Assembly (NCBI GenBank): GCA_964653975.1 | Contig: CAZZIG010000070.1 | Coordinates: 3,198-67,197, forward strand | From: an uncultured Acidimicrobiaceae bacterium | GTDB taxonomy: Bacteria; Actinomycetota; Acidimicrobiia; Spongiisociales; ZC4RG35 | Direction of reading: 5' to 3' | DNA length: 64,000 nucleotides | Shown: in pieces, positions 2,686 through 61,615 of the stretch | How the letters are laid out: each line of letters opens with the position of its first letter | Numbering within the stretch: the stretch's first letter is position 1 | The notes under the pieces: model-generated | The model's input: the letters and a program-made list of their open reading frames with translations, nothing else | Told to the model about the DNA's origin: nothing | Databases searched by the model: none | Position numbers and translations under genes: made by a program

Positions 2686-4350
2686 TCAATCCGCCTCGGT
2701 CAGGTCGAGCTCGGTGACGTCGGCGTCATCCCCCAACGCTGCCAGAGCCGAACGCAACGCTTCCCGGGCCCTGGCCGCCGACTCCGGGTCGAGGCTCTTG
2801 GGGTCGAGGGTGAGGTTGAACGCGCCAATCTCGGTCCTGATGGTTTCTCCCAGATCGAAGTCGCTGTACTCCCCCACCACCTCGTAGGTCCGCAACGGAT
2901 GGCTGATGCCCTTCAGGCCCTGCTCACCCAACGGCCGGCAGTAGATGTCGTCTTTGACCAGCATGTAGGTGGAGTGCGAGATCTGGATCTGATCGGGAGC
3001 GGCCGACGACTCGAGACGTGAGGCGGTGTTCACCGCCGCTCCCACGATGGTGTAGTCGAGACGGGCCTCCGACCCGAAGTTACCCACGGTGCAGTAGCCC
3101 GTGTTGATCCCCATGCGGGCGTGCATGGGCTCGGGCCCGACCCGATCCTCCCATTGGGCGCGCAACTCCTCGATCCGCCGTCGCATCCGCAGCGCCATCC
3201 GGACACAGGCGAGGGCGTCTTCTTTGCGTCCCCTGGTCTCCGGGTCTCCGAAGAAGATCATGATGCCGTCGCCTATGAACTTGTCGACCGTGCCACCGCA
3301 CCCGTCGGCGATCGACGCCATCTCACTCAGGTACGAGTTGAGGATCTCGCTGATCTGTTCGGCCTCGAGACGGTCGGTGAGGTCGGTGAACCCCTCGATG
3401 TCGGAGAAGAACACCGTGAGCTCCTTGCGGTACGACTGAACCCGCACCTCGGTTCGACCTTCGAAGATGGAGTCGTATACCTGCCTGGAGAGATACTTGG
3501 CCAGTTTCGCCGACAGCGCCTCCAGCTGTTCGTTCTTCTCGTTCAGTGACTTGTTGGCCAGATGTAGGGCATGTTCGGCCACTTTCCGCTCGGTGATGTC
3601 CCGGATGATCCCGCTGTAGAAGCGCTCACCTCCGACATCCCAGGTGGCCAGGGAGAGCTCGATCGGGAACTCCCTGCCGTCCCGGTCGAGGGCGGCCAAT
3701 TCAACCGTCTTGCCGATGACGTGATGCTCGCCACCGGAGCCGACCCGCTCCAGACCTTCGGCATGCGCCCCGCGGAACCTGTCTGGGATGACCGCGTCGA
3801 GAGTCTCTCCGATCATCTCCTCCCTCGTGTATCCGAACATCTCCACGGCCCCCTGGTTCCAGACCACGATCGTGCCCGTGGCGTCGATCGAGATCACCGC
3901 GTCGTTCGCCGACTGGAGGATTGCGTCGAGCCTCTGCTCGGATAAGGAGAGAGCGCGGGTCAGGGCGGTGCGCTCGGTGATGTCACGGATGATGCCGGAG
4001 AAGAATCGGTCATCGCCCTGCAACCAGGTCGCCAATGAGAGTTCGATGGGGAATTCGCTGCCGTCTCTGTGCAAGCCGAACACTTCGACGGTGCGGCCGA
4101 TGATCCGGGTCTCCCCGGTTGCGACCACCCGCTCGAAACCCTCGGTGTGAGCGGCCCGGAACCGCTCCGGCACGAGAGTGGCGAGTCGCTTTCCGACCAT
4201 CTCGTCGTCGCGATAGCCGAACATCGCGGCGGCCGCCGGGTTCGCGGCCACGATGATCCCGTTGGCGTCCGCGGTCACGATCGCATCCGCCGCCGTGTTG
4301 AATATCGCGTCGAACGACCCCGCCGAGATCCCACCGTTGCCCGTGCTCAC
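2686..4350 (-). CDS. tandem PAS-domain sensor fused to a class III adenylate/guanylate cyclase
   Basis: Two PAS repeats (…FPIELSLATW…SGIIRDITER… appears twice), then the CHD cyclase motifs FSDIEGFTDLT…KFIGDGIMIFFGDP…GINTGYCTVGNFG. Confidence 0.85.
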   Translation of the reverse strand: MSTGNGGISAGSFDAIFNTAADAIVTADANGIIVAANPAAAAMFGYRDDEMVGKRLATLVPERFRAAHTEGFERVVATGETRIIGRTVEVFGLHRDGSEFPIELSLATWLQGDDRFFSGIIRDITERTALTRALSLSEQRLDAILQSANDAVISIDATGTIVVWNQGAVEMFGYTREEMIGETLDAVIPDRFRGAHAEGLERVGSGGEHHVIGKTVELAALDRDGREFPIELSLATWDVGGERFYSGIIRDITERKVAEHALHLANKSLNEKNEQLEALSAKLAKYLSRQVYDSIFEGRTEVRVQSYRKELTVFFSDIEGFTDLTDRLEAEQISEILNSYLSEMASIADGCGGTVDKFIGDGIMIFFGDPETRGRKEDALACVRMALRMRRRIEELRAQWEDRVGPEPMHARMGINTGYCTVGNFGSEARLDYTIVGAAVNTASRLESSAAPDQIQISHSTYMLVKDDIYCRPLGEQGLKGISHPLRTYEVVGEYSDFDLGETIRTEIGAFNLTLDPKSLDPESAARAREALRSALAALGDDADVTELDLTEAD

Positions 4351-4539: not shown

Positions 4540-5100
4540 GTGAGCCGGAGTGAGGAAACCAGACGGCGTCTCCAGGAGGAGGCGATCAGATTGTTCACGA
4601 CGCGGGGGTTCGACGACGTCACCGTCGAAGAGGTGGCCAGGGCCGCCGGGGTATCGCACATGACCTTCTTCCGCAACTTCCCCACCAAGGAGGCAGTTGT
4701 GCTCGACGACCCTTACGACCCCGTCCTCGGAGCCGCCGTGGGCGCCCAGGACGACTCTCTTCCCCCGCTGGAGAGAGTGAGGCGCGGTGTGCTCGAGGCG
4801 TGGGAGGGGGTCGAAGAGCCTGGTGACGAGATGACCCGCGCCCGCATCGAACTGGCCGCGACTCACCCAGGGTTGCGAGCCAGGGTGTGGGAGAACAACC
4901 GGATCACCGAGCAGGTCATCGTCGACGCACTCACGACGAGTGGAGTGTCCGCACTGGACGCGCGAATCGCGGCAGGGGCGGCACTCGGGGCGCTCACCGC
5001 CGCCCTCTTCGACTGGGCCGACAACCCCACGGGAGACTCCCTCGGCGACCGGGTGCGCCGGGCGATGCACCTGCTCGCACCGGTCGGGGCCAGTCGATGA
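4540..5100 (+). CDS. TetR/AcrR family transcriptional regulator
   Basis: N-terminal HTH RRRLQEEAIRLFTTRGFDDVTVEEVARAAGVSHMTFFRNF; stop overlaps the start of the downstream ABC ATPase (ATGA). Confidence 0.85.
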   Translation: MSRSEETRRRLQEEAIRLFTTRGFDDVTVEEVARAAGVSHMTFFRNFPTKEAVVLDDPYDPVLGAAVGAQDDSLPPLERVRRGVLEAWEGVEEPGDEMTRARIELAATHPGLRARVWENNRITEQVIVDALTTSGVSALDARIAAGAALGALTAALFDWADNPTGDSLGDRVRRAMHLLAPVGASR

Positions 5101-5825
5101 CCCTTCCACTGGCCACCGAGGACGTGCGTCGCCACTTCGGCGCCGAAAAGGCGGTCGACGGGGTCGATATCGGGGTCGCCGCCGGTGAGATCCACGCCGT
5201 CGTGGGTCTCAATGGCGCCGGCAAGACCACCCTGATGAGACTCCTCCTCGGCATGCTCCGCCCCGATACCGGCCGGGCCACCGTCTTCGGCCACGATGCC
5301 CACCGTGCGCCTCCTCAGACCTGGAGTCGGGTCGGCCATCTCATCGAGACGCCTTTCGCCTACCCGGATCTGACCGTCCGGGAGAACGTGGCCGCCGCCG
5401 CCCTCCTCCACGGGCGCGACCAGCGACACGATCGCGCAGTCGACGAGGTCATCGCCGACTTCGAACTGGGCCATTGGGCCGATCGCAGGGCGTCGACTCT
5501 CTCGTTGGGCAACAGACAGCGGTTGGGGCTGGCTTCCGCCCTGGTCCACGAACCCGCGGTGGTGGTCCTCGACGAGCCCGCCAATTCTCTCGACCCGGCC
5601 GGGGTGGTGTTCGTCCGCGACTTGTTGACCGCCTACGCCGAACGTGGCGTCGCCGTGTTGGTCTCCAGCCACCACCTCGACCAGCTCGCCCGCGTCGCGC
5701 ACACGATCACTGTGATGCACCGGGGACTGGTCGTGGGCGCACTCGATCCTGGGGGTGTCGACCTAGAGCAGAGATTCTTCGACCTCGTCCACCAACACGA
5801 CCTCGAGATGGGAGCCAGGTCGTGA
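5097..5825 (+). CDS. ABC transporter ATP-binding protein
   Basis: Walker A GLNGAGKTT, signature LSLGNRQRL, Walker B VVVLDEP. The true start is the ATG at 5097 overlapping the TetR stop; the track ORF is over-extended upstream. Confidence 0.9.
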   Translation: MTLPLATEDVRRHFGAEKAVDGVDIGVAAGEIHAVVGLNGAGKTTLMRLLLGMLRPDTGRATVFGHDAHRAPPQTWSRVGHLIETPFAYPDLTVRENVAAAALLHGRDQRHDRAVDEVIADFELGHWADRRASTLSLGNRQRLGLASALVHEPAVVVLDEPANSLDPAGVVFVRDLLTAYAERGVAVLVSSHHLDQLARVAHTITVMHRGLVVGALDPGGVDLEQRFFDLVHQHDLEMGARS

Positions 5826-12012: not shown

Positions 12013-12979
12013 GGGCGAGACCCTATCTGTCGATCGTCCGCGACTGCTATACCTGCGCGACATGCTGTTGACCGAGACCACCGTCGACTGGCTGCTCGAC
12101 TCCGACCCCTCCATCAGGTGGCAGGTCATGCGCGACCTGACCGAGGAGGCCCCGGAGAAATTCGCCCAAGAGCGCTCCCGGGTCGCCATTGAGGGCTGGG
12201 GGGCGACGCTGCTCGGGCTGCAAGCCGACGACGGGAATTGGGGTGGCGGCGCCTACACACCGAAGTGGACCTCGACGACCTACACACTGCTCTTGCTCCG
12301 GCACCTCGGGATCGATGCCGACGACGAGAGAGTGCGGCACGCCATCGAATTGGTTCGAGATCGTGTCGTCATGGGGGGACAGGAATCGCCATTCTTCGAG
12401 TACCGCACGGAGGCATGCATCACCGCGATGGCATTGGCGTTGGGCTCGTATTTCCTGGAGGACGCACGGGACATGCCACAACCCGAGTATCTGCTCGACA
12501 GACAGCGCGAGGACGGTGGCTGGAACTGCTCGGTCCGTTCCGACCGGTCCTCGTTTCACACGACGATCTCCGCCCTGGAAGCTCTCCTGGAGTACGAGCG
12601 CGCCGTGGGGAATGATGGAGCCATCAGCGAGGCGCGCTCCCGGGCCCACGAATATCTCCTAGGACGGCGCCTGATGTATCGGCTCTCCACCGGCGAGTTG
12701 GTCGACAAGCGGTGGCTGCTGTTGTCGTTTCCCCCTCGCTGGCACTACGACGTGTTGCGCGGGCTCGACTATCTGCGGGACGCCGGGGTCGAGCCGGATG
12801 AGCGTTGTGAGGAGGCGCTCGAGTTGATCACCTCGAAGCGTCGGAAGGACGGGACCTGGCCTCTGCAAGGCCGCCACGTCGGCAAGGAGCACTTCCAGAT
12901 GGAGGAGGGTTCGGGGAAGCCAAGTCGCTGGAACACATTGCGTGCCCTTCGTGTGCTCCGCTGGCACACGTCTGGCTGA
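12011..12979 (+). CDS. prenyltransferase / squalene-oxidase-repeat protein (class II terpene-cyclase-like alpha/alpha toroid)
   Basis: Repeated QxxDGxW motifs: LQADDGNWGGGAY, DRQREDGGWNCS, KRRKDGTWPL. About 320 aa; the ATG at 12011 overlaps the divergent kinase start. Confidence 0.6.
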   Translation: MGETLSVDRPRLLYLRDMLLTETTVDWLLDSDPSIRWQVMRDLTEEAPEKFAQERSRVAIEGWGATLLGLQADDGNWGGGAYTPKWTSTTYTLLLLRHLGIDADDERVRHAIELVRDRVVMGGQESPFFEYRTEACITAMALALGSYFLEDARDMPQPEYLLDRQREDGGWNCSVRSDRSSFHTTISALEALLEYERAVGNDGAISEARSRAHEYLLGRRLMYRLSTGELVDKRWLLLSFPPRWHYDVLRGLDYLRDAGVEPDERCEEALELITSKRRKDGTWPLQGRHVGKEHFQMEEGSGKPSRWNTLRALRVLRWHTSG

Positions 12980-12982
12980 GGG

Positions 12983-13483
12983 TCAGGACAGGGCCAGGCG
13001 CATCCTGACGTCGGTGAGTGAAGGGTTCGACGCCAGTGGCTGCGACTCCCCTGTCCGGATGAAGCCCGCCCTCTCGTAGAGAGTCCGTGCGGGGAGATTC
13101 GACTCGACCACCCACAGCTTCACCTCGTCGGCCCCGGTTTCGATGCTCCACTCCCTGACCGCATCCACGAATCGCTGTCCCAGCCCCGACGACCGCGCCT
13201 CGGGTGCCACCCACATGCCGTAGAGGTGACGCGTGTTCGGCTCGTCGGCACGAGTGAAGGCGCCCACCATGCCGACGAGACCTTCATCGTCTTCTGCGAC
13301 GAGGATGATCTCATCCTCACCGGTCGAACCGGCTGCGGCGATCTCCTCCCACACGTGGTCGTCACGGGTCGAGGCCTGGTCGTGGGAGGCAGCGAAGGCG
13401 TCGGGGTCGGTTCGCAACGCCCGCAACCTGACCTCCCGGAGGCGCGATCCTTCGCCCTGGCGGATCCGTCTGATGGTCACCAT
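12983..13483 (-). CDS. GNAT family N-acetyltransferase
   Basis: …LYGMWVAPEARSSGLGQRFVDAVREWSIETGADEVKLWVVESNLPARTLYERAGF is the acetyl-CoA-binding motif. Confidence 0.8.
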   Translation of the reverse strand: MVTIRRIRQGEGSRLREVRLRALRTDPDAFAASHDQASTRDDHVWEEIAAAGSTGEDEIILVAEDDEGLVGMVGAFTRADEPNTRHLYGMWVAPEARSSGLGQRFVDAVREWSIETGADEVKLWVVESNLPARTLYERAGFIRTGESQPLASNPSLTDVRMRLALS

Positions 13484-13485
13484 GC

Positions 13486-14655
13486 TCAGATGATCCTCGC
13501 AGCATGCTCACGCAAAGGCCGGTCCTCCAGGATCCGTCCGGGCCCGAGCCGGCTCAGATCGAGGCTGGGCGGGGACCCCGCGATCGTCTCGGCGAGATGA
13601 CGCCCCACGGCGTGACATTGCTGGAAACCGTGCCCGCTGAACCCGGTGGCCAGGTGCAGCCCGTCGATACCGGGCCATTCCCCCACGATGGCGTTGGCGT
13701 CGAGGCGATTCTGGGCGTATAGACCGGCCCAGGAGCGGATCACCTCGAGACGATCGAAGGCGGGGAGTGTCCCGGCTAGCTCGGGCCAGATGAGGTCGTA
13801 GAAGCGAGAGCGAGGAGCGGGCGTGAAGTCGTACCCGACCGGATCGTCTTCGGTTGACCACGCGATGAAGAAGGTGCCATCGGACTCGGGGATCACGTAG
13901 ACCCCGGAGGGGAGGAACACGCTGGGCAGTCTGTCGCCTCCTGCCACTTCGCCGGCGACCACGTAGACGGTCCGCATCACCGGCTCGACCGGGATCTCGA
14001 CACCGGCGGTGGCGAGGAGGTCTCTCGACCATGCACCGGCGCAAACCACCACCGTGTTTGCCGAGATCGTCGAGCCGTCGATCACCGTCACGCCGGTGAC
14101 CCGATCCGCATCGACGACGATCGATCCCACCTCGCCGGTCTGGACGGCGACACCGTTCCGGATCGCCTGACGGCGGTATCCCTCGACAACGGCATGGGGG
14201 TCGACCGACCCGTCATGGGGTCCCAACGTGCCTCCCACCAGGTCGTGGGAAGCCAGGGCGGGGAAACGTCGGCCGATCTCGTCGATGTCGAGCCACTCCG
14301 AGTCGCATCCGAGCCGCTGCTGCGTGGCCAAACCGGCGAGCGCTTCTTCCTTGCCGTCAGCGTCGACGAGGAAGAGGTTGCCCTGCTTGCGCATCTGCGG
14401 ATCGGGGGTGAATTCGCCCACGGCCATCACCTCCGGAAACGTCTCCAAGACCTCCATGGCGTACTTGGAGATGGCGACGTTCTCTTCGAGGTTGAACTGG
14501 ATACGGACGTTGCCGTCGGAGAGCATCGTCGAGGAATAGCGCAGCGTCGGGTCGCGCTCGACGACGGTCACCGCGGTGCCGGGGACGAGCCGTCGCAGGT
14601 GGTAGGCGGTTGCCCACCCCATGGCGGCACCACCAACGATGAGGACGTCGGTCAT
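13486..14655 (-). CDS. FAD-dependent oxidoreductase (DAO family: glycine / sarcosine / D-amino-acid oxidase-like)
   Basis: MTDVLIVGGAAMGWATAYHL (dinucleotide fold) … VCAGAWS…; start taken at the internal Met. The longer track ORF is a GC-driven extension. Confidence 0.8.
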   Translation of the reverse strand: MTDVLIVGGAAMGWATAYHLRRLVPGTAVTVVERDPTLRYSSTMLSDGNVRIQFNLEENVAISKYAMEVLETFPEVMAVGEFTPDPQMRKQGNLFLVDADGKEEALAGLATQQRLGCDSEWLDIDEIGRRFPALASHDLVGGTLGPHDGSVDPHAVVEGYRRQAIRNGVAVQTGEVGSIVVDADRVTGVTVIDGSTISANTVVVCAGAWSRDLLATAGVEIPVEPVMRTVYVVAGEVAGGDRLPSVFLPSGVYVIPESDGTFFIAWSTEDDPVGYDFTPAPRSRFYDLIWPELAGTLPAFDRLEVIRSWAGLYAQNRLDANAIVGEWPGIDGLHLATGFSGHGFQQCHAVGRHLAETIAGSPPSLDLSRLGPGRILEDRPLREHAARII

Positions 14656-14713
14656 CGACTCGGAGGGTAACGGTGCCACCATGGCCGAGGAGGAGGCCTG
14701 CGACGACGGAAGG

Positions 14714-15070
14714 TCAGTCCGCTTCCTCGGTGCCCAGCAACGGCGGGTCGAATACACAAACCAGTCGCATCGGCGTGCGGGCGGTGATCCGGTGGGGCTC
14801 GCCGATACCGGCGGAGTAGAGACTGCCGGGAGCGAGTTGTTCCACCCGACCATCGCTCAGGTCTTCGATGACCCCCTCACCTTCGACGCAGTAGACGGTC
14901 TCCCGGTGGTCCCGGTACTCGAACTCCAGCTCCGCACTCTCATCGAGGGTGGTGACGTGGAACGAGTACTTCAGCCCGTCTTCGGCGACGACCAGACGTC
15001 GACTCCTCCAACCCGGTCCATGGACATCCCGCTCCGTCTCGGAGACCTGGTCGAGATGACGTATCAGCAT
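14714..15070 (-). CDS. EctC-like cupin (ectoine-synthase family) with no ectA/ectB
   Basis: Full-length collinear match to EctC: MLIRHLDQV…SFHVTTL…ETVYCVEGEGVIEDLSDGRV…PGSLY…MRLVCVFDPPLLGTE (compare MIVRNLEEA…SFHITRI…EAVYCIEGEGEVETLADGKI…PGDIY…MHLACVFTPGLTGNE). Confidence 0.8.
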   Translation of the reverse strand: MLIRHLDQVSETERDVHGPGWRSRRLVVAEDGLKYSFHVTTLDESAELEFEYRDHRETVYCVEGEGVIEDLSDGRVEQLAPGSLYSAGIGEPHRITARTPMRLVCVFDPPLLGTEEAD

Positions 15071-15122
15071 TGGCGGGACTGTATTGGACGGTCCCCGCCC
15101 GGGTCGGACGAATCGGTCGTGC

Positions 15123-16118
15123 TCAGGGCGTGAGGACCACCGGATACTCCCTGATGTCGATGCGGGACCCGTCTTTGGGCGAGTCGGCCCAGACGATGAG
15201 CGCGCCGGTCTGGCGACGGTCGACGTCGTAGTCGATGGTGAAGTCGAAGCCTCCCCATCCGGTCCCGATGTTGGTCATGGCGATGCCCTCCTCGAGGATC
15301 AGCCCGTCGGCGTCGGTGAGGACGTATTGGAAGGTGGCTTCGAAGACCGCTCCGAACCCGGTGACCCGGAGCGGATCGCCTGCCGGACCGCCGTACACAG
15401 GCGATTCGACGGAGATCGCCGCGGCCAACTCCAGATAGTCCCAAATCCCGACGGGACGGCTCACCAGGCTCCCGTCGCCGATCTGGATCGACACCGGCTT
15501 GCCCTCCTGGTGGAAGAGCACCTCGGCGACGCTGTCGAAGCGGGAGAGGGTGAACACCACCTGTGCCGCTCTCTGCGCCACGGTGGCGGAGTCGTCGGTG
15601 GCGTCGAATTCGGCGGACAGGTCGACCGTTGCCACGTCACCGGTGATGGTCAGACCGAGCAGCCGCACTCCGGATGGGATCGCCGTCGAGATCGCCGGCA
15701 CACCCTGTCGTTCTCCGGCGCCAGGGCCGGCGAGGAGTTGCTCCATGGCGGCCCGGGCCGCGGCGACGGTCCGGTCGACCTCCCGGGCCACGGGAGACAG
15801 GAAGGGGCCGGTGCGTTCGGCGCGCCCAGCCTCGTCGACGTAGAAGTAAGGGGCCACGACCATCTTCGCCGCGGGGCGGGTCGAGGTCGTCGGGCTCGCC
15901 GAGCTGGTGGTCGTGACCGGGGCGACGCTGGTGGTGGTCGTCTCGAGGGCAGCAGTCGTGGTCGTCGCGATCGACGTTGTCGTGCTGGCCGGGGTGGTGG
16001 TGGATGTGGCTGCCGACATCGTCGTCGATGTGCTCGGCTGCGTTCCTCCAGGGTTGGCCGTGTTGGTGCCACAGGCCACCAGGGCCAGTGTCGCCAGGAC
16101 GGTGACGATGCGACGCAT
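15123..16118 (-). CDS. lipoprotein with a Thr/Ser-rich linker and a GerMN/Gmad2-like domain
   Basis: MRRIVTVLATLALVACG is a signal peptide with lipobox; a long TSTT-rich low-complexity segment follows; C-terminal …DLSAEFDATDDSATVAQRAAQVVFTLSRFDSVAEVLF… is GerMN-like. Confidence 0.6.
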   Translation of the reverse strand: MRRIVTVLATLALVACGTNTANPGGTQPSTSTTMSAATSTTTPASTTTSIATTTTAALETTTTSVAPVTTTSSASPTTSTRPAAKMVVAPYFYVDEAGRAERTGPFLSPVAREVDRTVAAARAAMEQLLAGPGAGERQGVPAISTAIPSGVRLLGLTITGDVATVDLSAEFDATDDSATVAQRAAQVVFTLSRFDSVAEVLFHQEGKPVSIQIGDGSLVSRPVGIWDYLELAAAISVESPVYGGPAGDPLRVTGFGAVFEATFQYVLTDADGLILEEGIAMTNIGTGWGGFDFTIDYDVDRRQTGALIVWADSPKDGSRIDIREYPVVLTP

Positions 16119-16255
16119 CGCGGGTTCCTTTCTCGTGAGATGACTCCGCCACCTCTGAGACGTAGGAGACACCCCGAATGGGTGACACCCCTGTGAGAAA
16201 TCCAGATCTCCGGCAGCGAACGTCCGGCTAAGCCCGGCGGGGCTAGAGCCCTGCC

Positions 16256-17026
16256 TCAGCCGGCGAGCGACCCCCCAAAGATCTGCCAGGCCAGGACACT
16301 CTTCGCCACCAGACTGAGGACGAGATAGGACTTCTCCCCAAAGAGGTAGTCCGCCCACCGGCCAACGCCCTGATATTGCAACCATTGGTTGAGCCCGAAG
16401 CTGAAGAAGAAGACGAACTGGGCCACGACGATTCCGTAGACGAAACCCGGCACGGTCTCGGCGCCGATCACATTGACCGCAATCGCCACCCAGGGAGCAA
16501 GACCGGCCACTGTCCCGAACCAGAACGGGAGCATGGTGGTCCTGTCACGCCCCGGCGGGTTCATGAGCTCTTGGAGCCACCCGAAGAGGATCATGGCGAT
16601 GTTGGCCCCGGCGATGGCGATCAACGCATCGACCCCCGAGATGCCGGAGTAGAGGCTGATCAGGATCACCATCAGCGTGGCGCTGAATGAGTATTCGACC
16701 CAACGGAACCGGTTGATCCCCCGTCTGAGGTCGCGCTCATACAGATCGCGGGCGACAGTCCCGGTGAGTAGGTGATCGAGGGCGGCCAACGCCAGGAAGA
16801 TCGCCGTGGTCCAACCGATCGGCACGTCGAACAACGGCGCCGGCGCCGGTTGAGGCGCGCCCGGGGGGCCTTCGGGGAAGGTGGACGTGATCGAAATGGC
16901 GAAGTCGCCTGCGAGGACGACGATCGCCACGGCCTGAGCGAGGTGAAGGATGGTGAGACCGAGGTTCCATCTGCGCAGGCCTCGAAGACGTTCCTGGGTG
17001 TTCTGGGTCGATTCAGCAGTCGTCAT
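16256..17026 (-). CDS. heliorhodopsin-like 7TM retinal-binding protein
   Basis: Seven TM helices with heliorhodopsin-family motifs: LRRWNLGLTILHLAQA (TM1), RFRWVEYSFSATLMVILISLYSG, MILFGWLQELMN, FWFGTVAGLAPW, and TM7 YLVLSLVAKSVLAWQIFGG with the Lys expected for the Schiff base. Start taken at the Met at 17026, which has a GGGAG SD 6 nt upstream. Confidence 0.72.
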   Translation of the reverse strand: MTTAESTQNTQERLRGLRRWNLGLTILHLAQAVAIVVLAGDFAISITSTFPEGPPGAPQPAPAPLFDVPIGWTTAIFLALAALDHLLTGTVARDLYERDLRRGINRFRWVEYSFSATLMVILISLYSGISGVDALIAIAGANIAMILFGWLQELMNPPGRDRTTMLPFWFGTVAGLAPWVAIAVNVIGAETVPGFVYGIVVAQFVFFFSFGLNQWLQYQGVGRWADYLFGEKSYLVLSLVAKSVLAWQIFGGSLAG

Positions 17027-17352
17027 GACGGCTCCCATGTTGTCTATCGCTGTACCCGAGGCGAAACAGCCGTCGAGCCGGCGACGTCGTCTCTTCCGAG
17101 ATCAGACCTCTCGCTCGTCGTTGCGATCGTGCCGCAACTACCGAGGGGTCGACCAGGGTCCTATGTCCCTGGCTAGCCGGGGACTGTCGACGATACGCGC
17201 AGGAGACCGAGCTCGATCGGTTCGGATCGCTCAATGGGACGGCACCCGTCCATCGAAGCCCACCAGTCGCTCGATGACACCGTCATCGTCGAGACCGGGG
17301 GTCTCCGTGCTGCTCTAGCGGCGAGGCGAACCCTCGCTGGCTCTCACCTTGG

Positions 17353-18027
17353 TCAGGTTGGCGAGAATGTCAGTGTGCGAGCCACGACTTCTGAGGCCGT
17401 GTCCATGAGGAGACGGTCGTGAGCCCAGGCGTGGGCTCGGAGCACATCGGCGGCGGAGCCGGCATCGATTCCCAGCTGCGATATGACCATGCCGGTGGCT
17501 TGATGGAACGTGTCGTGTTCGGCTGGCTGGTCCAGGGAGGCGGGCTGTTGACTGAGAGAACCGACCACGAGTGAGGCGAGCTCCGCTGCGATGTGCTCGG
17601 CATCGGCGAGAGTTTCGGGGGTGATCCTGCCGTGTCGGTCCTGGAGGTTGAGTGTGGCGAAGGTGGTTCCTCCCGCTCGCAGGGGAACACCTGCGATGGC
17701 TTGATAGCCGATGGCTTGGGCCTTGGCCGAGAGCAGGGGCCACGGGTTGGTGTTGGAGGGAGCGGTTTCTGCGCTCTTCGATGTGCTGTCCACTCCGGCG
17801 TCGAAGCATGGCCCCTCTTGGAGGGTGAACTCCCATTCGTCCAGAGCGCGAGCGTCGTCCGAGGAGGCACACACGTTGGGCTGATCGGAGGCTCCGACAA
17901 AGGAGATGCTGATGTCGCTGACGTCCAGGAGTCGGGCACAGTCAGTGGCCAGCGAACCCGGTAGTCCGGGTTCGTCCCATGTTGCGAATGACTCTCGCAG
18001 AGCATCGAGTTCGGAGGGGCTGATCAT
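17353..18027 (-). CDS. GAF + ANTAR domain RNA-binding antitermination regulator
   Basis: C-terminal ANTAR: HQATGMVISQLGIDAGSAADVLRAHAWAHDRLLMDTASEVVAR; N-terminal GAF-like. Start (ATGA) overlaps the STAS stop. Confidence 0.7.
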   Translation of the reverse strand: MISPSELDALRESFATWDEPGLPGSLATDCARLLDVSDISISFVGASDQPNVCASSDDARALDEWEFTLQEGPCFDAGVDSTSKSAETAPSNTNPWPLLSAKAQAIGYQAIAGVPLRAGGTTFATLNLQDRHGRITPETLADAEHIAAELASLVVGSLSQQPASLDQPAEHDTFHQATGMVISQLGIDAGSAADVLRAHAWAHDRLLMDTASEVVARTLTFSPT

Positions 18028-18404
18028 CGGTTCACTCGCTCCTCGATCATCGAGTCCAAACCGACCACTTCGAGCAGGCGGCACACCGACGATGAGGGTT
18101 CTCGTATGGTGATCGTCTCGGGGCCGAGCCCAACAACAGCATCGAGTAGAGCGTGCAAGCCGCTGGCATCCATGAACTTCAGCTCGGGGAGCAGGTAGAT
18201 GACCCTGCGGGGATGACCATTGTTCCCGCTCGAGTCGGCGTAGGGCTCCAGGTGCTGTTTCAGCATCGGGCCGGTGTAGAGGTCCAGTTCGCCTCGCACC
18301 TCGATCGCCCAAGCGGAGGGATCTTCGATTCGCACTGAAACGTCTAGAGGAGGAGGGTCGTAATCGAATGTGCCTGCTGTCGGTTCGGAAGTTCTGACGG
18401 TCAT
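18024..18404 (-). CDS. STAS-domain protein (anti-sigma-factor antagonist family)
   Basis: …VIYLLPELKFMDASGLHALLDAVVGLGPETITIREPSSSVCRLLEVVGLDSM is the SpoIIAA-like fold signature. Confidence 0.72.
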   Translation of the reverse strand: MTVRTSEPTAGTFDYDPPPLDVSVRIEDPSAWAIEVRGELDLYTGPMLKQHLEPYADSSGNNGHPRRVIYLLPELKFMDASGLHALLDAVVGLGPETITIREPSSSVCRLLEVVGLDSMIEERVNR

Positions 18405-18524
18405 GTCCTGGCCTCTCCTCAGATCTTTGAGGGTCCGCCAGGATCTAGAGCAGACTCGTTCGGGCTGTGCTTGTCCGCCACTCTACAGGAGCATCCGCCC
18501 TACGGGAAGAACGCGAAACCAGCC

Positions 18525-19259
18525 TTAATCGGCAGAGGTCAGGTGGGGTGGCGTCAAGTCGCCCGAAACGATGGCGGCGGAGATGTCTCGCAGCCGCTCG
18601 TTGTTGTTGCGGGCATGATCCCGGATGCGCCTGAAAGCCTCGTCCATGGTCAGGCCGGTGACATGTGCGACGATCCCTTTCGCCTGCTCTATCACCACCC
18701 GGGTCTCGAGAGCTGTTCGCAGCTGGGAGATCAGCGTCCGGTCGTCGATGGTCGACCGGTCCTGGAGAACGGCGATTGTGGCCAGATCCGCCAGAGCCTG
18801 GGCGACGGTCAAGTCCTCGTCGGTGAGGTCGACTGTCTCGGTCAAGAACAGGTTGAGCGCCCCCACGACCTGACCGCGGAGGCGCATCGGAACAGCTGTG
18901 ACCGCGCTGAATCCGGCCGAGAATGCCGCCTCCCCGAACTCTGTCCATCTGTGCCGAGCCTGAGATCCGGCAAGGTCGCCAGACCTGACCGGCCGGCCGG
19001 TCCGAAACGCCTCCATACCCGGGCCCCCCTGGTTAACCAGCTCCAAGAGTTCGACTACGCCGGTCGCTTCGCTGCTCGCCGCCACCACCCGCAACACACC
19101 GTTGCCTTCGGTCACCAACAACCCCGCCTGTGCCACATCCAACAGATCAGTACAACTCACTACCAGCTCATAGAACAAGTCGACCGCGTCGAAGTCCGAG
19201 ACCAGCGTGTCCGCCATGCTCACCAGCACCCGGACCAACCGACCCTCCCTTGACGTCAT
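18525..19259 (-). CDS. GAF + ANTAR domain regulator (second copy)
   Basis: GAF (…VAQAGLLVTEGNGVLRVVAASSE…MRLRGQVVGALNLF…) plus ANTAR (IEQAKGIVAHVTGLTMDEAFRRIRDHARNNNERLRDISAAIV). Confidence 0.75.
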   Translation of the reverse strand: MTSREGRLVRVLVSMADTLVSDFDAVDLFYELVVSCTDLLDVAQAGLLVTEGNGVLRVVAASSEATGVVELLELVNQGGPGMEAFRTGRPVRSGDLAGSQARHRWTEFGEAAFSAGFSAVTAVPMRLRGQVVGALNLFLTETVDLTDEDLTVAQALADLATIAVLQDRSTIDDRTLISQLRTALETRVVIEQAKGIVAHVTGLTMDEAFRRIRDHARNNNERLRDISAAIVSGDLTPPHLTSAD

Positions 19260-19687
19260 GACGAAAGGGTAGACCCCAGAGTTCGCAGGCGAAACGGGAA
19301 GCCGGGGTCCCGGCCCACAGACGCAATGTCGGAGAGTCCTTGCCGTTCTACGTCAAAGGTGAGCGTCGCTGTTCGGGCTCGGATAGCGAGCAGCGACACG
19401 CCTGACCAATCTCTGCGATTCCGACGTGCTCACACCGAACGAGGGGATGAAGCAACTCCTCGATGTTGGCCGACGCTCCGGTGGGAGGGGCACAGATGGC
19501 ATGATCGTTGGTGTTCCGTCTTTTTCGGATGGGCCGCCGCAACAGTCTCCCGAGCGCCCGAAGCAAAGGCCCCCCTCGAGGCAGAGACGGCAAACGCGCG
19601 GAACCCCCACCCAGCCGAGTCGGTGTTGAGGAGCCCGCCAGGACCGATATACTTCAACGGTCGGCCCGGACTCTCGGGCAAGCTCCA

Positions 19688-19765
19688 GGGCGCGTAGAAC
19701 AGTCTGGAGTGTTCGCCGGCCTGTCAAGCCGGAGGTCGCGGGTTCAAATCCCGTCGTGCCCGCCA
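19688..19765 (+). tRNA. tRNA-Asp (GUC)
   Basis: Hand-folded cloverleaf: acceptor GGGCGCG/CGUGCCC, D-arm GAAC…GUUC, anticodon stem CCGGC/GCCGG with loop CUGUCAA (anticodon GUC), T-arm GCGGG-UUCAAAU-CCCGU, discriminator G, encoded CCA. Confidence 0.9.
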
Positions 19766-19791
19766 ACCGATTCCGCGAGAATTGGTTGCAT

Positions 19792-19864
19792 GGTCAGGTA
19801 GCTCAGTTGGTAGAGCGCCGGTCTGAAAAACCGGAGGTCGACGGATCGACGCCGTCCCTGACCA
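19792..19864 (+). tRNA. tRNA-Phe (GAA)
   Basis: Acceptor GGUCAGG/CCUGACC, D-arm GCUC-AGUUGGUA-GAGC, anticodon stem CCGGU/ACCGG with loop CUGAAAA (anticodon GAA), T-arm GACGG-AUCGACG-CCGUC with an unusual A54, discriminator A; CCA not fully encoded. Confidence 0.82.
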
Positions 19865-20197
19865 CCTAGCTGCGTAAACGCCCGAGACGCCTTGTGGCAG
19901 CCGGAGTCTCTGCGTGCCTGCTCGACGGTTTCGCGACATTGCGCGACGATTCAGGTCGTTTCATGGACTCTCGCGGAGTATCCGCGTGCTCCTCCGTCGG
20001 GAGAGCATTCCGAACAGCATCCAGCGGCTCCGGAGTGGGAGGGTCACCGTCAGTGGTGAGAGAATGAACATGAGGCGAACCAGATGGCCCACGCACTCGA
20101 GACATATGCCAGATGCCGTTGGTGAACGAGTATTTCGACCCTGGCCGGGCGAGGCGGGGTCGACGAATATTCGATCAGATAGCACTCAGGAGCTGGG

Positions 20198-31758: not shown

Positions 31759-34077
31759 TCAGCTCCCTTGCAAGGAGGCGTAGAGCTCTTCCTCCTGGGC
31801 GAAGTGGAGCTCGAGGATGGCGTAGAGACCGTAGAGAGTGCGCCGTAGATCTCTCAGATCGGCCGCCCCGGGCCCGCCGGCCGGCAACTCTGCGACCTGG
31901 CGTTCGAACAGCTCGACGAGGTGGAAGATCTCACGGTGGGTCCGACTCATCATGGCCATCGGGTCTTCGCCGGGCATGATCTCGGCTATCCGGGGGTAGA
32001 TTTCGCTTTCGTCTCCGGCCTCATGGGGCTGGATCTCCTCGACGAGGAATCGCTCGACCTCCTTCAGCAGCCGCACCCCCTCGGCCGGGGGGAGGGTGTC
32101 GATGGTGTCAGCAGCCTGTCGGAGTCTGTTCAATTGGGGCATGAGCTCTCGATGCTCGGCCTGCAGCCGGTCGGCGAGGTCGGCAGGGAGCACGGCTCCA
32201 TCCTCACTCGGGCTCCTACCGCCAAGGGCTCGCAACGAATTGAGGATCGCGATCACGTCGATGCCCTCCTGGACCAGGGCGCCGACGATGGGGACCAGCA
32301 GTCCGACGGATGCCGCCGTCATCGCCACCAGTGAGAGCCCCATACCGATGAGCACGGTCTGCACAGCGATGTGGCGGGAACGCTGTGCAATCCCGATGGC
32401 GTCGACGAGCAACTGGAGACGGTCGACCACGAGGACTATGTCCGCAGCTTCTGAAGATGCGGTCGCACCACGCGCCCCCATGGCGACGCCGACATCTGCC
32501 GCGGCCAGGGCGGGTGCATCGTTGATGCCGTCGCCGACCATCGTGGTGACGCCTGTTCGCTGCAAATCCTCGAGCACCCTCACCTTCTCCTCGGGTGTGG
32601 CCTCTGCGAGGATGTCGTCCGCACCCACGGCAACCCCGACCGACCGCGCCACCAGCGGTTGGTCTCCGGTCGCCATCACGACCTGCTCGACACCAAGACG
32701 ACGTAGGGCGCGGATCGTGCGTGCCGCGTCGGGCCGGATCCGATCGTCGAAGACGAGAGCACCAACGACGTCACCGTCGACCGCGACGTAGACGACGGTC
32801 GGCGACACCTTGGTGACTCGACTCCGAAATGCTTCGACCTCCGGTGGCTCCGGCGACCCATCGAGGATCCACGACAATTTCCCGACGGAGACACTCCTCG
32901 TCCCGACGGTCGCAGAGACTCCCGCACCATGTCGCTCTTCGACCTCGGTGGGCAGGACGAAGTCGACCTCACGTTCATGGGCGGTAGCGACGATCGACCG
33001 GGCCAAAACATGTGATGAGACCTGATCGACCGACGCCGCCAGAGACAGCATCTCCTGTTCGGACATCGACCCATCGAAGACGGTGACCGAGTGAAGGACT
33101 GGCCGGCCGACAGTTACGGTTCCGGTCTTGTCGATGACGACATTCCGCGTCTGCGCCAGGGTCTCCAACGCTCCACCTCCCCTGAACACGACACCGCGAC
33201 GGGCGGCTCGCGAGATGCCGGACACCAGGGCGATCGGCACGCCGAGCAACAGCGGGCAGGGCGTGGCGACGACGAGTACGGCGAGACCGCGCATCTGATC
33301 GCCGGACAGCAGCCACGCCATCCCGGACACCACGAGTGCCACGGGCACGAACCAGCCCGCCCACCGGTCCGCCAGACGCACCGCCGGCGCACGAGACTCG
33401 CGCGCCGACTCCACCAACCGGATGATCCCGGCGTATGTGCTCTCCCCGGCCTCTTCCGTAGCCTGGATTTCGAATACGTCCGCGGCATTCACGGTGCCAC
33501 TGCTGACCAGGTCGCCGCTGGTCTTCTCCACCGGGAGCGGCTCCCCGGTGAGCGCCGACTCGTCGACGACCGCCACACCCCCTACGACCACACCGTCGAC
33601 CGGGAGAACCTCACCGGCCTTCACCAACAGGCGGTCGCCGCGACGAATCTCGTCGACATCCACAGTCTCGACGGACTCACCCCTCACCCTATGAGCCGTC
33701 CTTGGCGCCCGCTGGATCAGCGAGGTCAATTCACGCTCCGCCCGCCCGGCCGCGTAGTCCTCGAGGAACTGACCGGTGGCCAGCATCAGTCCGATGATTG
33801 CTGCGGTGAGCAACTCTCCCAGGGCCAGCGCCGCCACCACCGCGAGCAGCGCTATGACGTCGACCCCCATCTCACGGCGCCTCAGCTTCTGGACCATCTC
33901 GCGCAGCAGTGGGACGAGTGGAAGCACCGCAACCAAGATCAGCGCCCAGTCGACACCGACACCGAGGTCGAGGAGGGCGAAGAGACCGGCGACCGTCAGC
34001 CCGACGACCACGAACGCCAGCATGATCGTGGCCGAGCGAGCGGAGCGCATGTCCTCAGTAAACCCTGCGAGCCTCAA
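31759..34077 (-). CDS. P1B-type heavy-metal P-type ATPase with a C-terminal hemerythrin-like domain (P1B-5 architecture)
   Basis: TM TPCP motif ([11 protein letters not shown]), phosphorylation site VIDKTGTVT, hinge [17 protein letters not shown]; C-terminal ~150 aa carry H…HxxxE hemerythrin/HHE repeats (…EHRELMP…[13 protein letters not shown]…[12 protein letters not shown]…[10 protein letters not shown]). Confidence 0.8.
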
Positions 34078-60532: not shown

Positions 60533-61615
60533 TTGGGTGTATTCGACGTCGTAGCAAAGGAGGGCTATGAGCAGATCCTTTACGGCTACGACGATGTATC
60601 TGGCCTCAAGGCGATTATCGCCATACACAGCACGGCATTGGGTCCCGCTCTAGGCGGGACTCGTTTTTTTCCGTACGAATCCGAGGAGGATGCGCTCCAC
60701 GACGTCCTCCGACTCGCCAAGGGCATGACCTACAAGGCGGCGGCCGCCGGGCTCGACCTCGGTGGTGGGAAAGCGGTGATCATCGGCGACCCGCGTGAGG
60801 ACAAGAGCGAACGTCTCTTCCGCGCCTACGGCCGCATCGTCGACTCGCTGCAAGGCCGCTACATAACCGCCGAGGATGTCGGGACGACCACCAACGACAT
60901 GGACATCGTCCGGAGAGAGACGAGGTGGGCACTGGGGAGTTCCGTGGCGTTGGGTGGATCGGGCGACCCGTCCCCGGTCACGGCGCGCGGGCTCTATGCC
61001 GCCACCCGGGCGGTGGCACAGAAGCTGTGGGGCGACACCGACCTCGCCGGTCGCCGCTTCGCCGTCCAAGGCGTGGGCAAGGTGGGCACGGCGTTCGTGC
61101 AACTACTCGTCGAGCATCGGGCAGAGGTCGTGGTCACCGATGCCTACGAACGCGCCATCGAGTCGGCGGTGGAGACGTATGGGGTCAAGCCCGTCGACCC
61201 CGACGAGATCTACGAGGTCGACTGTGACTTCTTCTCGCCATGTGCACTCGGAGCAGGTTTGAACGAGACGACCATCCCACAGCTGGGCTGTCGGGCCATC
61301 GTAGGCAGTGCCAACAATCAACTGGCCACGGACGAAGACGCCGACCGCCTGGCCGCTCGGGGCATCCTCTACGCCCCGGACTTCGTCGTCAACGCCGGTG
61401 GCTTGATCAACGTCTACGACGAGCTCAACGGGTATTCGAAGACCCGGGCGATGCACCGGGTCGACTCGATCTTCGACGCCACTCTCAAGATCCTCGAGAC
61501 GGCCGAGGAACACGGGATCAACCCGAATCAGGCTGCGTTGAAGGTGGCCGACGACCGCATCAGGGACATTGGCGATCTGCGCAGGTTCCGCCGCAGTGGC
61601 GAGGACAGGAACTGA
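60533..61615 (+). CDS. Glu/Leu/Phe/Val dehydrogenase family: leucine/valine dehydrogenase-like
   Basis: …AIHSTALGPALGGTRFFPYESEEDALHDVLRLAKGMTYKAAAAGLDLGGGKAVIIGDP… (catalytic Lys box) …AVQGVGKVG…. Confidence 0.85.
   Translation: MGVFDVVAKEGYEQILYGYDDVSGLKAIIAIHSTALGPALGGTRFFPYESEEDALHDVLRLAKGMTYKAAAAGLDLGGGKAVIIGDPREDKSERLFRAYGRIVDSLQGRYITAEDVGTTTNDMDIVRRETRWALGSSVALGGSGDPSPVTARGLYAATRAVAQKLWGDTDLAGRRFAVQGVGKVGTAFVQLLVEHRAEVVVTDAYERAIESAVETYGVKPVDPDEIYEVDCDFFSPCALGAGLNETTIPQLGCRAIVGSANNQLATDEDADRLAARGILYAPDFVVNAGGLINVYDELNGYSKTRAMHRVDSIFDATLKILETAEEHGINPNQAALKVADDRIRDIGDLRRFRRSGEDRN

Follow-up and report, generated by a model that had tools for sequence, protein, structure and literature searches.

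A canonical heliorhodopsin gene in a recently rearranged genomic neighborhood of an Acidimicrobiaceae bacterium

The function of heliorhodopsins (HeRs) is largely open, so a conserved link between a HeR gene and an RNA-binding antiterminator or a metabolic operon would be a testable lead. A locus that seemed to offer both kinds of link lies in a 64,000-nt stretch of DNA from an uncultured Acidimicrobiaceae bacterium (contig CAZZIG010000070.1; referred to here as the window), which has a GC content of 62 to 68%. An original prediction made from this sequence placed a HeR gene behind a STAS and double GAF-ANTAR regulatory module and ahead of a string of genes for a lipoprotein, an EctC-like cupin, an oxidase, and a GNAT protein, and it held that these neighbors bear on what the HeR does. 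Is the gene a HeR, and do its neighbors say anything about its function? The identity of the gene was supported and the reading of its context as informative was not, so that the earlier interpretation as a whole is supported in part. The reading that we favor, with a probability of roughly three in four, is that the gene encodes a canonical HeR that acts as a stand-alone light sensor or regulator and forms its own transcription unit, that the locus does not reveal its partner, and that its present neighbors are coincidental.

Identity, key residues, and predicted topology of the heliorhodopsin

The HeR coding sequence occupies positions 16256 to 17026 on the minus strand and specifies 256 aa. 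If another in-frame ATG, at 17038, is taken as the start, the open reading frame (ORF) is longer (16256 to 17038, minus strand; 260 aa). The ATG at 17026, which is the start used in the original prediction, is plausible: a Shine-Dalgarno-like GGGAG (17036 to 17032, minus strand) lies 5 nt 5' of it and is kept in the related loci L081 to L083. The protein matched the Pfam Heliorhodopsin model (PF18761) with an E value of 9.8e-100 and a score of 333 bits (cutoff, 26.7 bits) over profile positions 1 to 242 of 242, and it matched the NCBIfam HeR equivalog NF038020 with 277 bits (cutoff, 100 bits), whereas the bacteriorhodopsin model PF01036 gave no match at an E value of ≤0.01 in the Pfam scan. 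No better 7TM family was found; the sole other Pfam match, to DER1, scored 19.6 bits, which is under the cutoff for that model. The assignment of the 7TM ORF to the HeRs and the stated lack of a type 1 rhodopsin signature were both borne out by these comparisons, and the heliorhodopsin-type motifs quoted with them (RRWNLGLTILHLAQA, SLYSG, FGWLQE, and LSLVAKSVLAWQIFGG) were all found in the ORF.

Homologues are numerous: in a large protein collection, more than 6,000 proteins matched at an E value of ≤1e-20, the best of them 92% identical. An exact-sequence lookup with either start returned no record, and relatives were used in its place. The annotated homologues carry the source name “heliorhodopsin HeR,” and their hosts are Acidimicrobiia and other Actinomycetota. 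The traits by which HeRs are typically recognized include binding of all-trans retinal, a slow photocycle, a lack of ion pumping, and a monoderm host; in keeping with the last of these traits, the closest loci come from MAGs of Acidimicrobiia and Actinomycetota. Judged by its sequence, the gene is genuine and full length and encodes a typical, canonical actinobacterial HeR. The family to which it belongs as a standard member is very large and automatically annotated, and genes of this kind are already known.

The protein aligned from end to end with HeRs of solved structure. The alignment with 48C12 (PDB 6SU3; also 6SU4 and 6UH3), the founding actinobacterial HeR, had an E value of 2e-69 and 47.7% identity over 243 aligned residues, and TaHeR (6IS6; E value, 3e-50) and the eukaryotic Cv06 (9VFC) also aligned end to end. 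The Schiff base lysine position, which the original prediction had correctly assigned to TM7, is K246 in helix 7 (motif SLVAKS), aligned with K241 of 48C12. The single glutamate at the counterion position in helix 3 is E115 (E107 in 48C12), the histidine pair is H32 and H89 (H23 and H80), and S242 corresponds to S237; all five residues were invariant across 24 close relatives. Most residues of the retinal pocket are the same in the two proteins, and N101, R104, W105, Y108, N138, M141, E149, and Q213 are among the further 48C12 residues that are kept. Helix boundaries were placed by hand with the hydropathy profile and the alignment to 48C12 as guides. With these boundaries, the N terminus and loops BC, DE, and FG hold 14 lysine and arginine residues and loops AB, CD, and EF and the C terminus hold none, so that all 14 are on the predicted cytoplasmic side. 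By the positive-inside rule, this charge pattern fits an inverted topology, in which the N terminus would be cytoplasmic and the C terminus outside; it implies the same N-in orientation as in 48C12.

The window HeR departs from 48C12 at several positions (N207 to F212, S76 to A85, S112 to A120, and C166 to T176), and its EF loop is 5 residues shorter. The asparagine is kept in three HeRs with solved structures (N207 in 48C12, N204 in TaHeR, and N255 in Cv06). The corresponding residue is phenylalanine here (codon at about 16403 to 16405, minus strand) and in at least 90% of the 24 close relatives, and F212 is, across these alignments, a clade-wide peculiarity.

In 48C12, N207 lies at a proposed carotenoid-binding fenestration, where the asparagine is reported to position the carotenoid (preprint 10.1101/2025.11.27.691015). 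A rival reading is that the window HeR serves mainly in light harvesting or transport rather than as a sensor, either as a two-antenna carotenoid-binding rhodopsin of the type proposed in that preprint or as a proton transporter like the viral V2HeR3. The fenestration-forming residues named in the preprint are indeed present (F172, G179, and F211, for F162, G169, and F206 of 48C12), and the residues that match positions 166 and 210 of 48C12 are small (T176 and G215). However, the bulky F212 takes the place of the carotenoid-positioning asparagine, carotenoid genes are not in the window, the bacterial HeRs tested so far do not transport ions (PMC11109279), and transport has been reported only for the viral subfamily (PMC9448325). 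We regard such a role as distinctly unlikely and favor a canonical HeR, one that probably transports nothing. When about 45 further ORFs of the window were scanned against Pfam, no gene for phytoene synthase, phytoene desaturase, lycopene cyclase, or Blh was found, in agreement with the earlier statement that retinal biosynthesis genes are lacking there. Little can be read from this result, since a genome is far larger than 64 kb. The same scans found no photolyase, glutamine synthetase, or type 1 rhodopsin gene in the window.

The regulator cassette and the heliorhodopsin leader

The domains named for the three upstream genes were confirmed, and all three genes are co-directional with the HeR gene. 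The first encodes a GAF-ANTAR regulator of 244 aa (18525 to 19259, minus strand; E values of 7.7e-19 for ANTAR and 5.7e-14 for GAF_2). The second encodes a STAS-domain protein of 126 aa (18024 to 18404, minus strand; PF01740 E value, 4.5e-7), whose score against TIGR00377, the anti-sigma factor antagonist superfamily, was under the cutoff. The third gene (17353 to 18027, minus strand), which we call ANTAR1, adjoins the HeR gene and encodes a GAF/ANTAR-like regulator of 224 aa. The start codon of ANTAR1 and the stop codon of the STAS gene overlap (ATGA), and the ANTAR domain of the encoded protein is weak, scoring 23.9 bits against a Pfam gathering score of 27.3, with 23.3 bits for GAF. The gap between ANTAR1 and the HeR gene is 326 nt, as the original prediction gave it.

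The closest relative with usable flanks, L081, carries a HeR that is 92% identical to that of the window. The two sequences are collinear from window position 17293 down to 7683 (blastn; 92.3% DNA identity over 9.6 kb), a span that includes the genes for the HeR and the GerMN, EctC-like, DAO, GNAT, and SQHop-like proteins as well as histidine kinase, response regulator, and ABC transporter genes. A second block, with 99.6% identity by blastn (window, 19618 to 19866; L081:1411-1659), covers the tRNA-Asp/tRNA-Phe region, and the two tRNA genes (19688 to 19866, plus strand; ARAGORN and Rfam) form a conserved anchor beyond the cassette. Between these anchors, L081 has 327 nt, within which an intact 119-aa ORF begins, and the window has 2,324 nt (17294 to 19617, minus strand), which hold the three regulator genes. 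The tRNA-Asp/Phe promoter region borders this strain-specific 2.3-kb cassette on one side, and the HeR leader borders it on the other. The 119-aa ORF is intact in L081 (L081:1690-2049) and in L082 and matched no Pfam family. In the window, a 3' remnant of it marks the right-hand cassette breakpoint (17240 to 17308, minus strand; tblastn to L081 residues 95 to 117, 70% identity): the last ~23 codons are retained, with a stop codon in common with L081, in an open frame of at most 27 codons. The left junction is sharp (19617/19618), and no direct repeats flanking the cassette were found. Since L081 is collinear without the cassette and the small ORF is cut in the window, the arrangement in the window is the derived one: in this strain, the 2.3-kb cassette recently took the place of one portion of a small gene.

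Orthologues of ANTAR1 (77 to 86% identity) occur in three other Acidimicrobiia contigs (L087 to L089). The gene order there is that of the window, with a GAF-ANTAR gene (237 to 244 aa), a STAS gene (126 aa), and an ANTAR gene (224 to 230 aa) that has the identical 4-nt overlap. No HeR gene lies beside the cassette in any of the three contigs, and the downstream genes there are unrelated. Because the cassette is found without a HeR gene, it can be taken as an independent, self-contained three-gene unit that stands ahead of the HeR gene in this strain only by chance. The regulators did not recur across HeR loci either. We compared the 10-kb flanks of HeR genes from 80 species-representative genomes, whose HeRs are 65 to 84% identical to the window HeR. 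Homologues of ANTAR1 and of the STAS protein were found at 0 of these 80 loci, and a GAF-ANTAR homologue was found at 2, in other positions and on the opposite strand. The claim that the upstream regulators inform on HeR function did not survive these comparisons.

The RNA targets that ANTAR proteins recognize consist of a tandem pair of hairpins with A1/G4 hexaloops, in which the second hairpin competes with a terminator. A custom search for such a dual pair of A..G.. hexaloop hairpins, which the original prediction had proposed as a check, found none in the leader (17027 to 17352); two single hairpins of this type lie there about 50 nt apart, one of them within the cassette, and they do not form a tandem pair. 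Across the window, dual-hexaloop sites numbered 5, compared to 5.3 in shuffled sequences. No Rfam match was obtained in positions 16000 to 19700, which include the 326-nt leader, even at an E value of ≤5. The leader showed no excess folding stability (z = −0.72 versus dinucleotide shuffles), and no terminator-like site was found within it. Neither the gap between ANTAR1 and the HeR gene nor that between the HeR and GerMN genes gave a predicted intrinsic terminator, and the hairpins after the ANTAR1 and HeR stop codons were no better than those of shuffled sequences. A promoter and terminator scan of positions 12800 to 19800 gave terminator-like sites only inside coding sequence, at the level of shuffles, and a promoter-like site on the tRNA side. 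The latter, TTGAGG-16-TATACT (19626 to 19653, plus strand), was the sole sigma-70-like promoter match in the scanned interval; it lies just 5' of tRNA-Asp, in the part of the 99.6% L081-identical block that extends from 19618 to 19687, and the cassette boundary is directly beside it.

The original prediction implied that the ANTAR regulators drive HeR expression by antitermination within the 326-nt leader, which would make the HeR an output of the STAS/GAF-ANTAR module. The position of the co-directional ANTAR gene invites this explanation and resembles that in known ANTAR antitermination systems (EutV, NasR, AmiR, and actinobacterial ANTAR RNAs), in which ANTAR genes likewise stand upstream on the same strand. 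The HeR leader differs from those systems in that it does not have the defining RNA target and in that the adjacency is not conserved; tandem hairpins, an overlapping terminator, and co-occurrence of regulator and target, which together characterize ANTAR-regulated transcripts, were all lacking. The part of the leader that is common to L081 (17027 to 17293, minus strand; 92% identity, collinear to 17293) probably holds the HeR gene's own promoter and 5' untranslated region. This part is older than the cassette and therefore cannot have evolved as a target of it. Taken with the 92%-identical relative that has no cassette, the ORF cut by the insertion, and the cassettes that have no HeR gene, these results make control of the HeR by ANTAR antitermination highly improbable. 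Since no strong terminator was predicted between ANTAR1 and the HeR gene, passive read-through from the cassette is possible, although unsupported, and read-through from the HeR gene into the GerMN gene is possible as well.

Downstream genes and the survey of heliorhodopsin loci

Pfam and NCBIfam agreed with the original prediction on the four genes that follow the HeR gene on the minus strand. They encode a putative GerMN + Gmad2 lipoprotein (15123 to 16112; E values of 3e-20 for PF10646 and 2e-17 for PF10648), an EctC-like cupin (14714 to 15070), a DAO flavoprotein (13486 to 14685), and a GNAT protein (12983 to 13483). The description of the gaps as short was right for the later ones (52 nt between GerMN and EctC, about 28 nt between EctC and DAO, and 2 nt between DAO and GNAT) but not for the first, since 143 nt separate the HeR and GerMN genes. 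The EctC-like, DAO, and GNAT genes form a tightly spaced trio that is probably a separate unit from the HeR gene. Convergent with the GNAT gene is a gene for an SQHop-cyclase-repeat-like protein of 312 aa (12041 to 12979, plus strand; PF13249, 30 bits). A histidine kinase gene and a response regulator gene lie 4 to 6 kb downstream of the HeR gene, and the criteria of Bulzu et al. (PMC8612252) would score them as a two-component linkage, which is a point against the stand-alone reading; the only ABC transporter genes near the HeR gene are more than 6 kb off, behind this two-component system.

Two minor features of these genes are of note in their own right. The EctC-like cupin is short (118 aa) and just reached the cutoff of the NCBIfam ectoine synthase subfamily (129.5 versus 128 bits). 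No ectA or ectB gene lies near it, its gene is tightly linked to those for the DAO-family oxidase and the GNAT protein, and the EctC-DAO-GNAT arrangement looks like a “solitary EctC” cluster. The SQHop-like protein had weak PDB matches to squalene-hopene cyclase (E value, 0.004). By tblastn, its gene was found within ~5 kb of the HeR gene in the four closest relatives only (L081, L002, L001, and L014), despite rearrangements; there are two paralogues in L002 and none near more distant HeRs.

Outside the window, a GerMN gene follows the HeR gene only in L081 to L083 and in L002, and in L002 an SCO4226-like/class III cyclase gene is interposed between the two. The EctC-DAO-GNAT trio was found near a HeR gene only in L081 and L002, and a lone GNAT homologue also adjoins the HeR gene in L001. 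In L001, whose HeR is 83% identical, the HeR gene is inverted relative to the GNAT/SQHop-like pair, and the genes that come after it are a SHOCT gene and genes for a P-type ATPase and a cytochrome c, with no string. In L014 (84% identical), the string is not next to the HeR gene. Overall, the GerMN-EctC-DAO-GNAT string was missing within 10 kb of the HeR gene at 79 of the 80 species-representative loci. The comparison identifies the string as synteny common only to the closest relatives, and the claim that it bears on HeR function was not supported, given its absence in L001 and L014.

An operon in which the HeR, in the light, modulates the GerMN protein and/or the EctC-like, DAO, and GNAT proteins has to be weighed against this pattern. 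All five genes lie on one strand, their order (HeR-GerMN-EctC-DAO-GNAT) is common to the window, L081, and L002, and there are precedents for HeRs that regulate the products of adjacent genes (PMC11109279), the analogues being pairs with glutamine synthetase, photolyase, or an ABC transporter. However, the 143-nt gap between the HeR and GerMN genes greatly exceeds both the operon criterion of <10 bp used by Bulzu et al. (PMC8612252) and the peak of intergenic distances, at −20 to 30 bp, quoted in PMC11109279. Furthermore, the interposed cyclase gene in L002 and the absence of the string beside HeRs as close as 83 to 84% count against the operon, and the conservation that does exist is no greater than shared descent predicts at 75 to 92% DNA identity. 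We consider such an operon unlikely. A related proposal is that the HeR has been rewired in this lineage, whether by read-through from the cassette into the HeR gene or as part of a light-modulated HeR-GerMN/EctC-like/DAO/GNAT unit for envelope or compatible-solute metabolism. This would add a new class of partner to the few known for HeRs if it were true, and we judge it very unlikely.

To see whether any neighbor family recurs with HeRs, we clustered all plausible ORFs within 6 kb on either side of the HeR gene at 83 loci. No family was present at more than 11 of the 83 loci, the commonest being a short-chain dehydrogenase, and the neighbors found in the window recurred only in the 2 to 4 closest relatives. 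The absence of a dominant neighbor family is in line with surveys in the literature. In the work of Kim et al., only 38.6% of HeR genes had cotranscribed neighbors, and the authors described ten recurrent flanking groups, namely, glutamine synthetase, NAD+ synthetase, and photolyase along with MerR, TerC, ABC transporter, SDR, alpha/beta hydrolase, DUF2177, and DUF2238 (PMC11109279). None of these ten groups is immediately adjacent to the window HeR gene. The marks of a HeR-partner operon were thus lacking on both sides, with gaps of 326 nt upstream and 143 nt downstream and no recurrent partner family.

The comparative evidence gives no conserved link between this locus and a regulator or a metabolic operon; the neighborhood appears, from these alignments, to have been rearranged recently and to be uninformative on HeR function. 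With a cassette that is strain specific and downstream genes that are confined to close relatives, the locus is therefore one more ordinary Acidimicrobiia HeR among the thousands catalogued. Its main value is as a caution: the HeR gene of this clade lies beside a variable region, and its neighbors differ even between genomes with 92% identity.

Nucleotide cyclase genes were noted at some HeR loci. In L002 (the same locus as L086), a gene for an SCO4226-like protein with a class III nucleotide cyclase domain (4684 to 5508) begins 51 nt after the HeR gene, and a divergent gene before the HeR gene (2974 to 3726) encodes a membrane protein with a C-terminal cyclase-like VLFADIVGFT motif. The window has its own PAS-PAS-cyclase gene (2686 to 4350), 12 kb from the HeR gene. 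A general association between HeRs and class III cyclases was rejected because homologues occurred at only 4 species-representative loci (L002, L001, L055, and L022), where both their distance from the HeR gene and their strand varied.

Proposed mode of action and other features of the window

How might a stand-alone HeR of this kind work? We propose that Lys246 in helix 7 would form a Schiff base with all-trans retinal, for which Glu115 would serve as the counterion, and that His32 and His89 would lie nearby. By analogy with 48C12, AbHeR, TfHeR, and OcHeR, light would isomerize the retinal and give rise to a long-lived photointermediate. This state may alter the arginine-rich cytoplasmic loops, which include R97, R102, R105, R106, R110, and R112 in the BC loop and R227 and K236 in the FG loop, and the altered loops could modulate a partner protein by direct contact, so that the HeR would act as a sensor or regulator rather than as an ion pump. 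Most likely the HeR gene is transcribed as a unit by itself, and the partner would be encoded elsewhere.

The proposal draws on bacterial HeRs of the same family for which a partner has been described: AbHeR with glutamine synthetase (PMC9529153), TfHeR with photolyase (PMC9769723), and OcHeR with the OmrDE ABC exporter (PMC11109279). Such HeRs do not pump, their photocycle is long, and it is through arginines of the intracellular loops that they act on their partners, whether glutamine synthetase, photolyase, or an ABC exporter (PMC11109279, PMC9529153, PMC9769723). The arginine-rich intracellular loops 1 and 3 that have been implicated in partner binding in these proteins are also present in the window HeR. 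In contrast, the partner genes are adjacent to the HeR genes in those systems, whereas the window HeR gene has no member of a recurrent partner group beside it.

Two features far from the HeR gene were also noted. ARAGORN reported a “tRNA-Pyl” with a CTA anticodon at 60616 to 60693 (plus strand), for which the Rfam tRNA model gave no match at its gathering score or at an E value of ≤5, and this call is probably a false positive. Finally, a gene at 31759 to 34077 (minus strand) encodes a P-type (E1-E2) ATPase with a C-terminal hemerythrin domain, which is an uncommon fusion.
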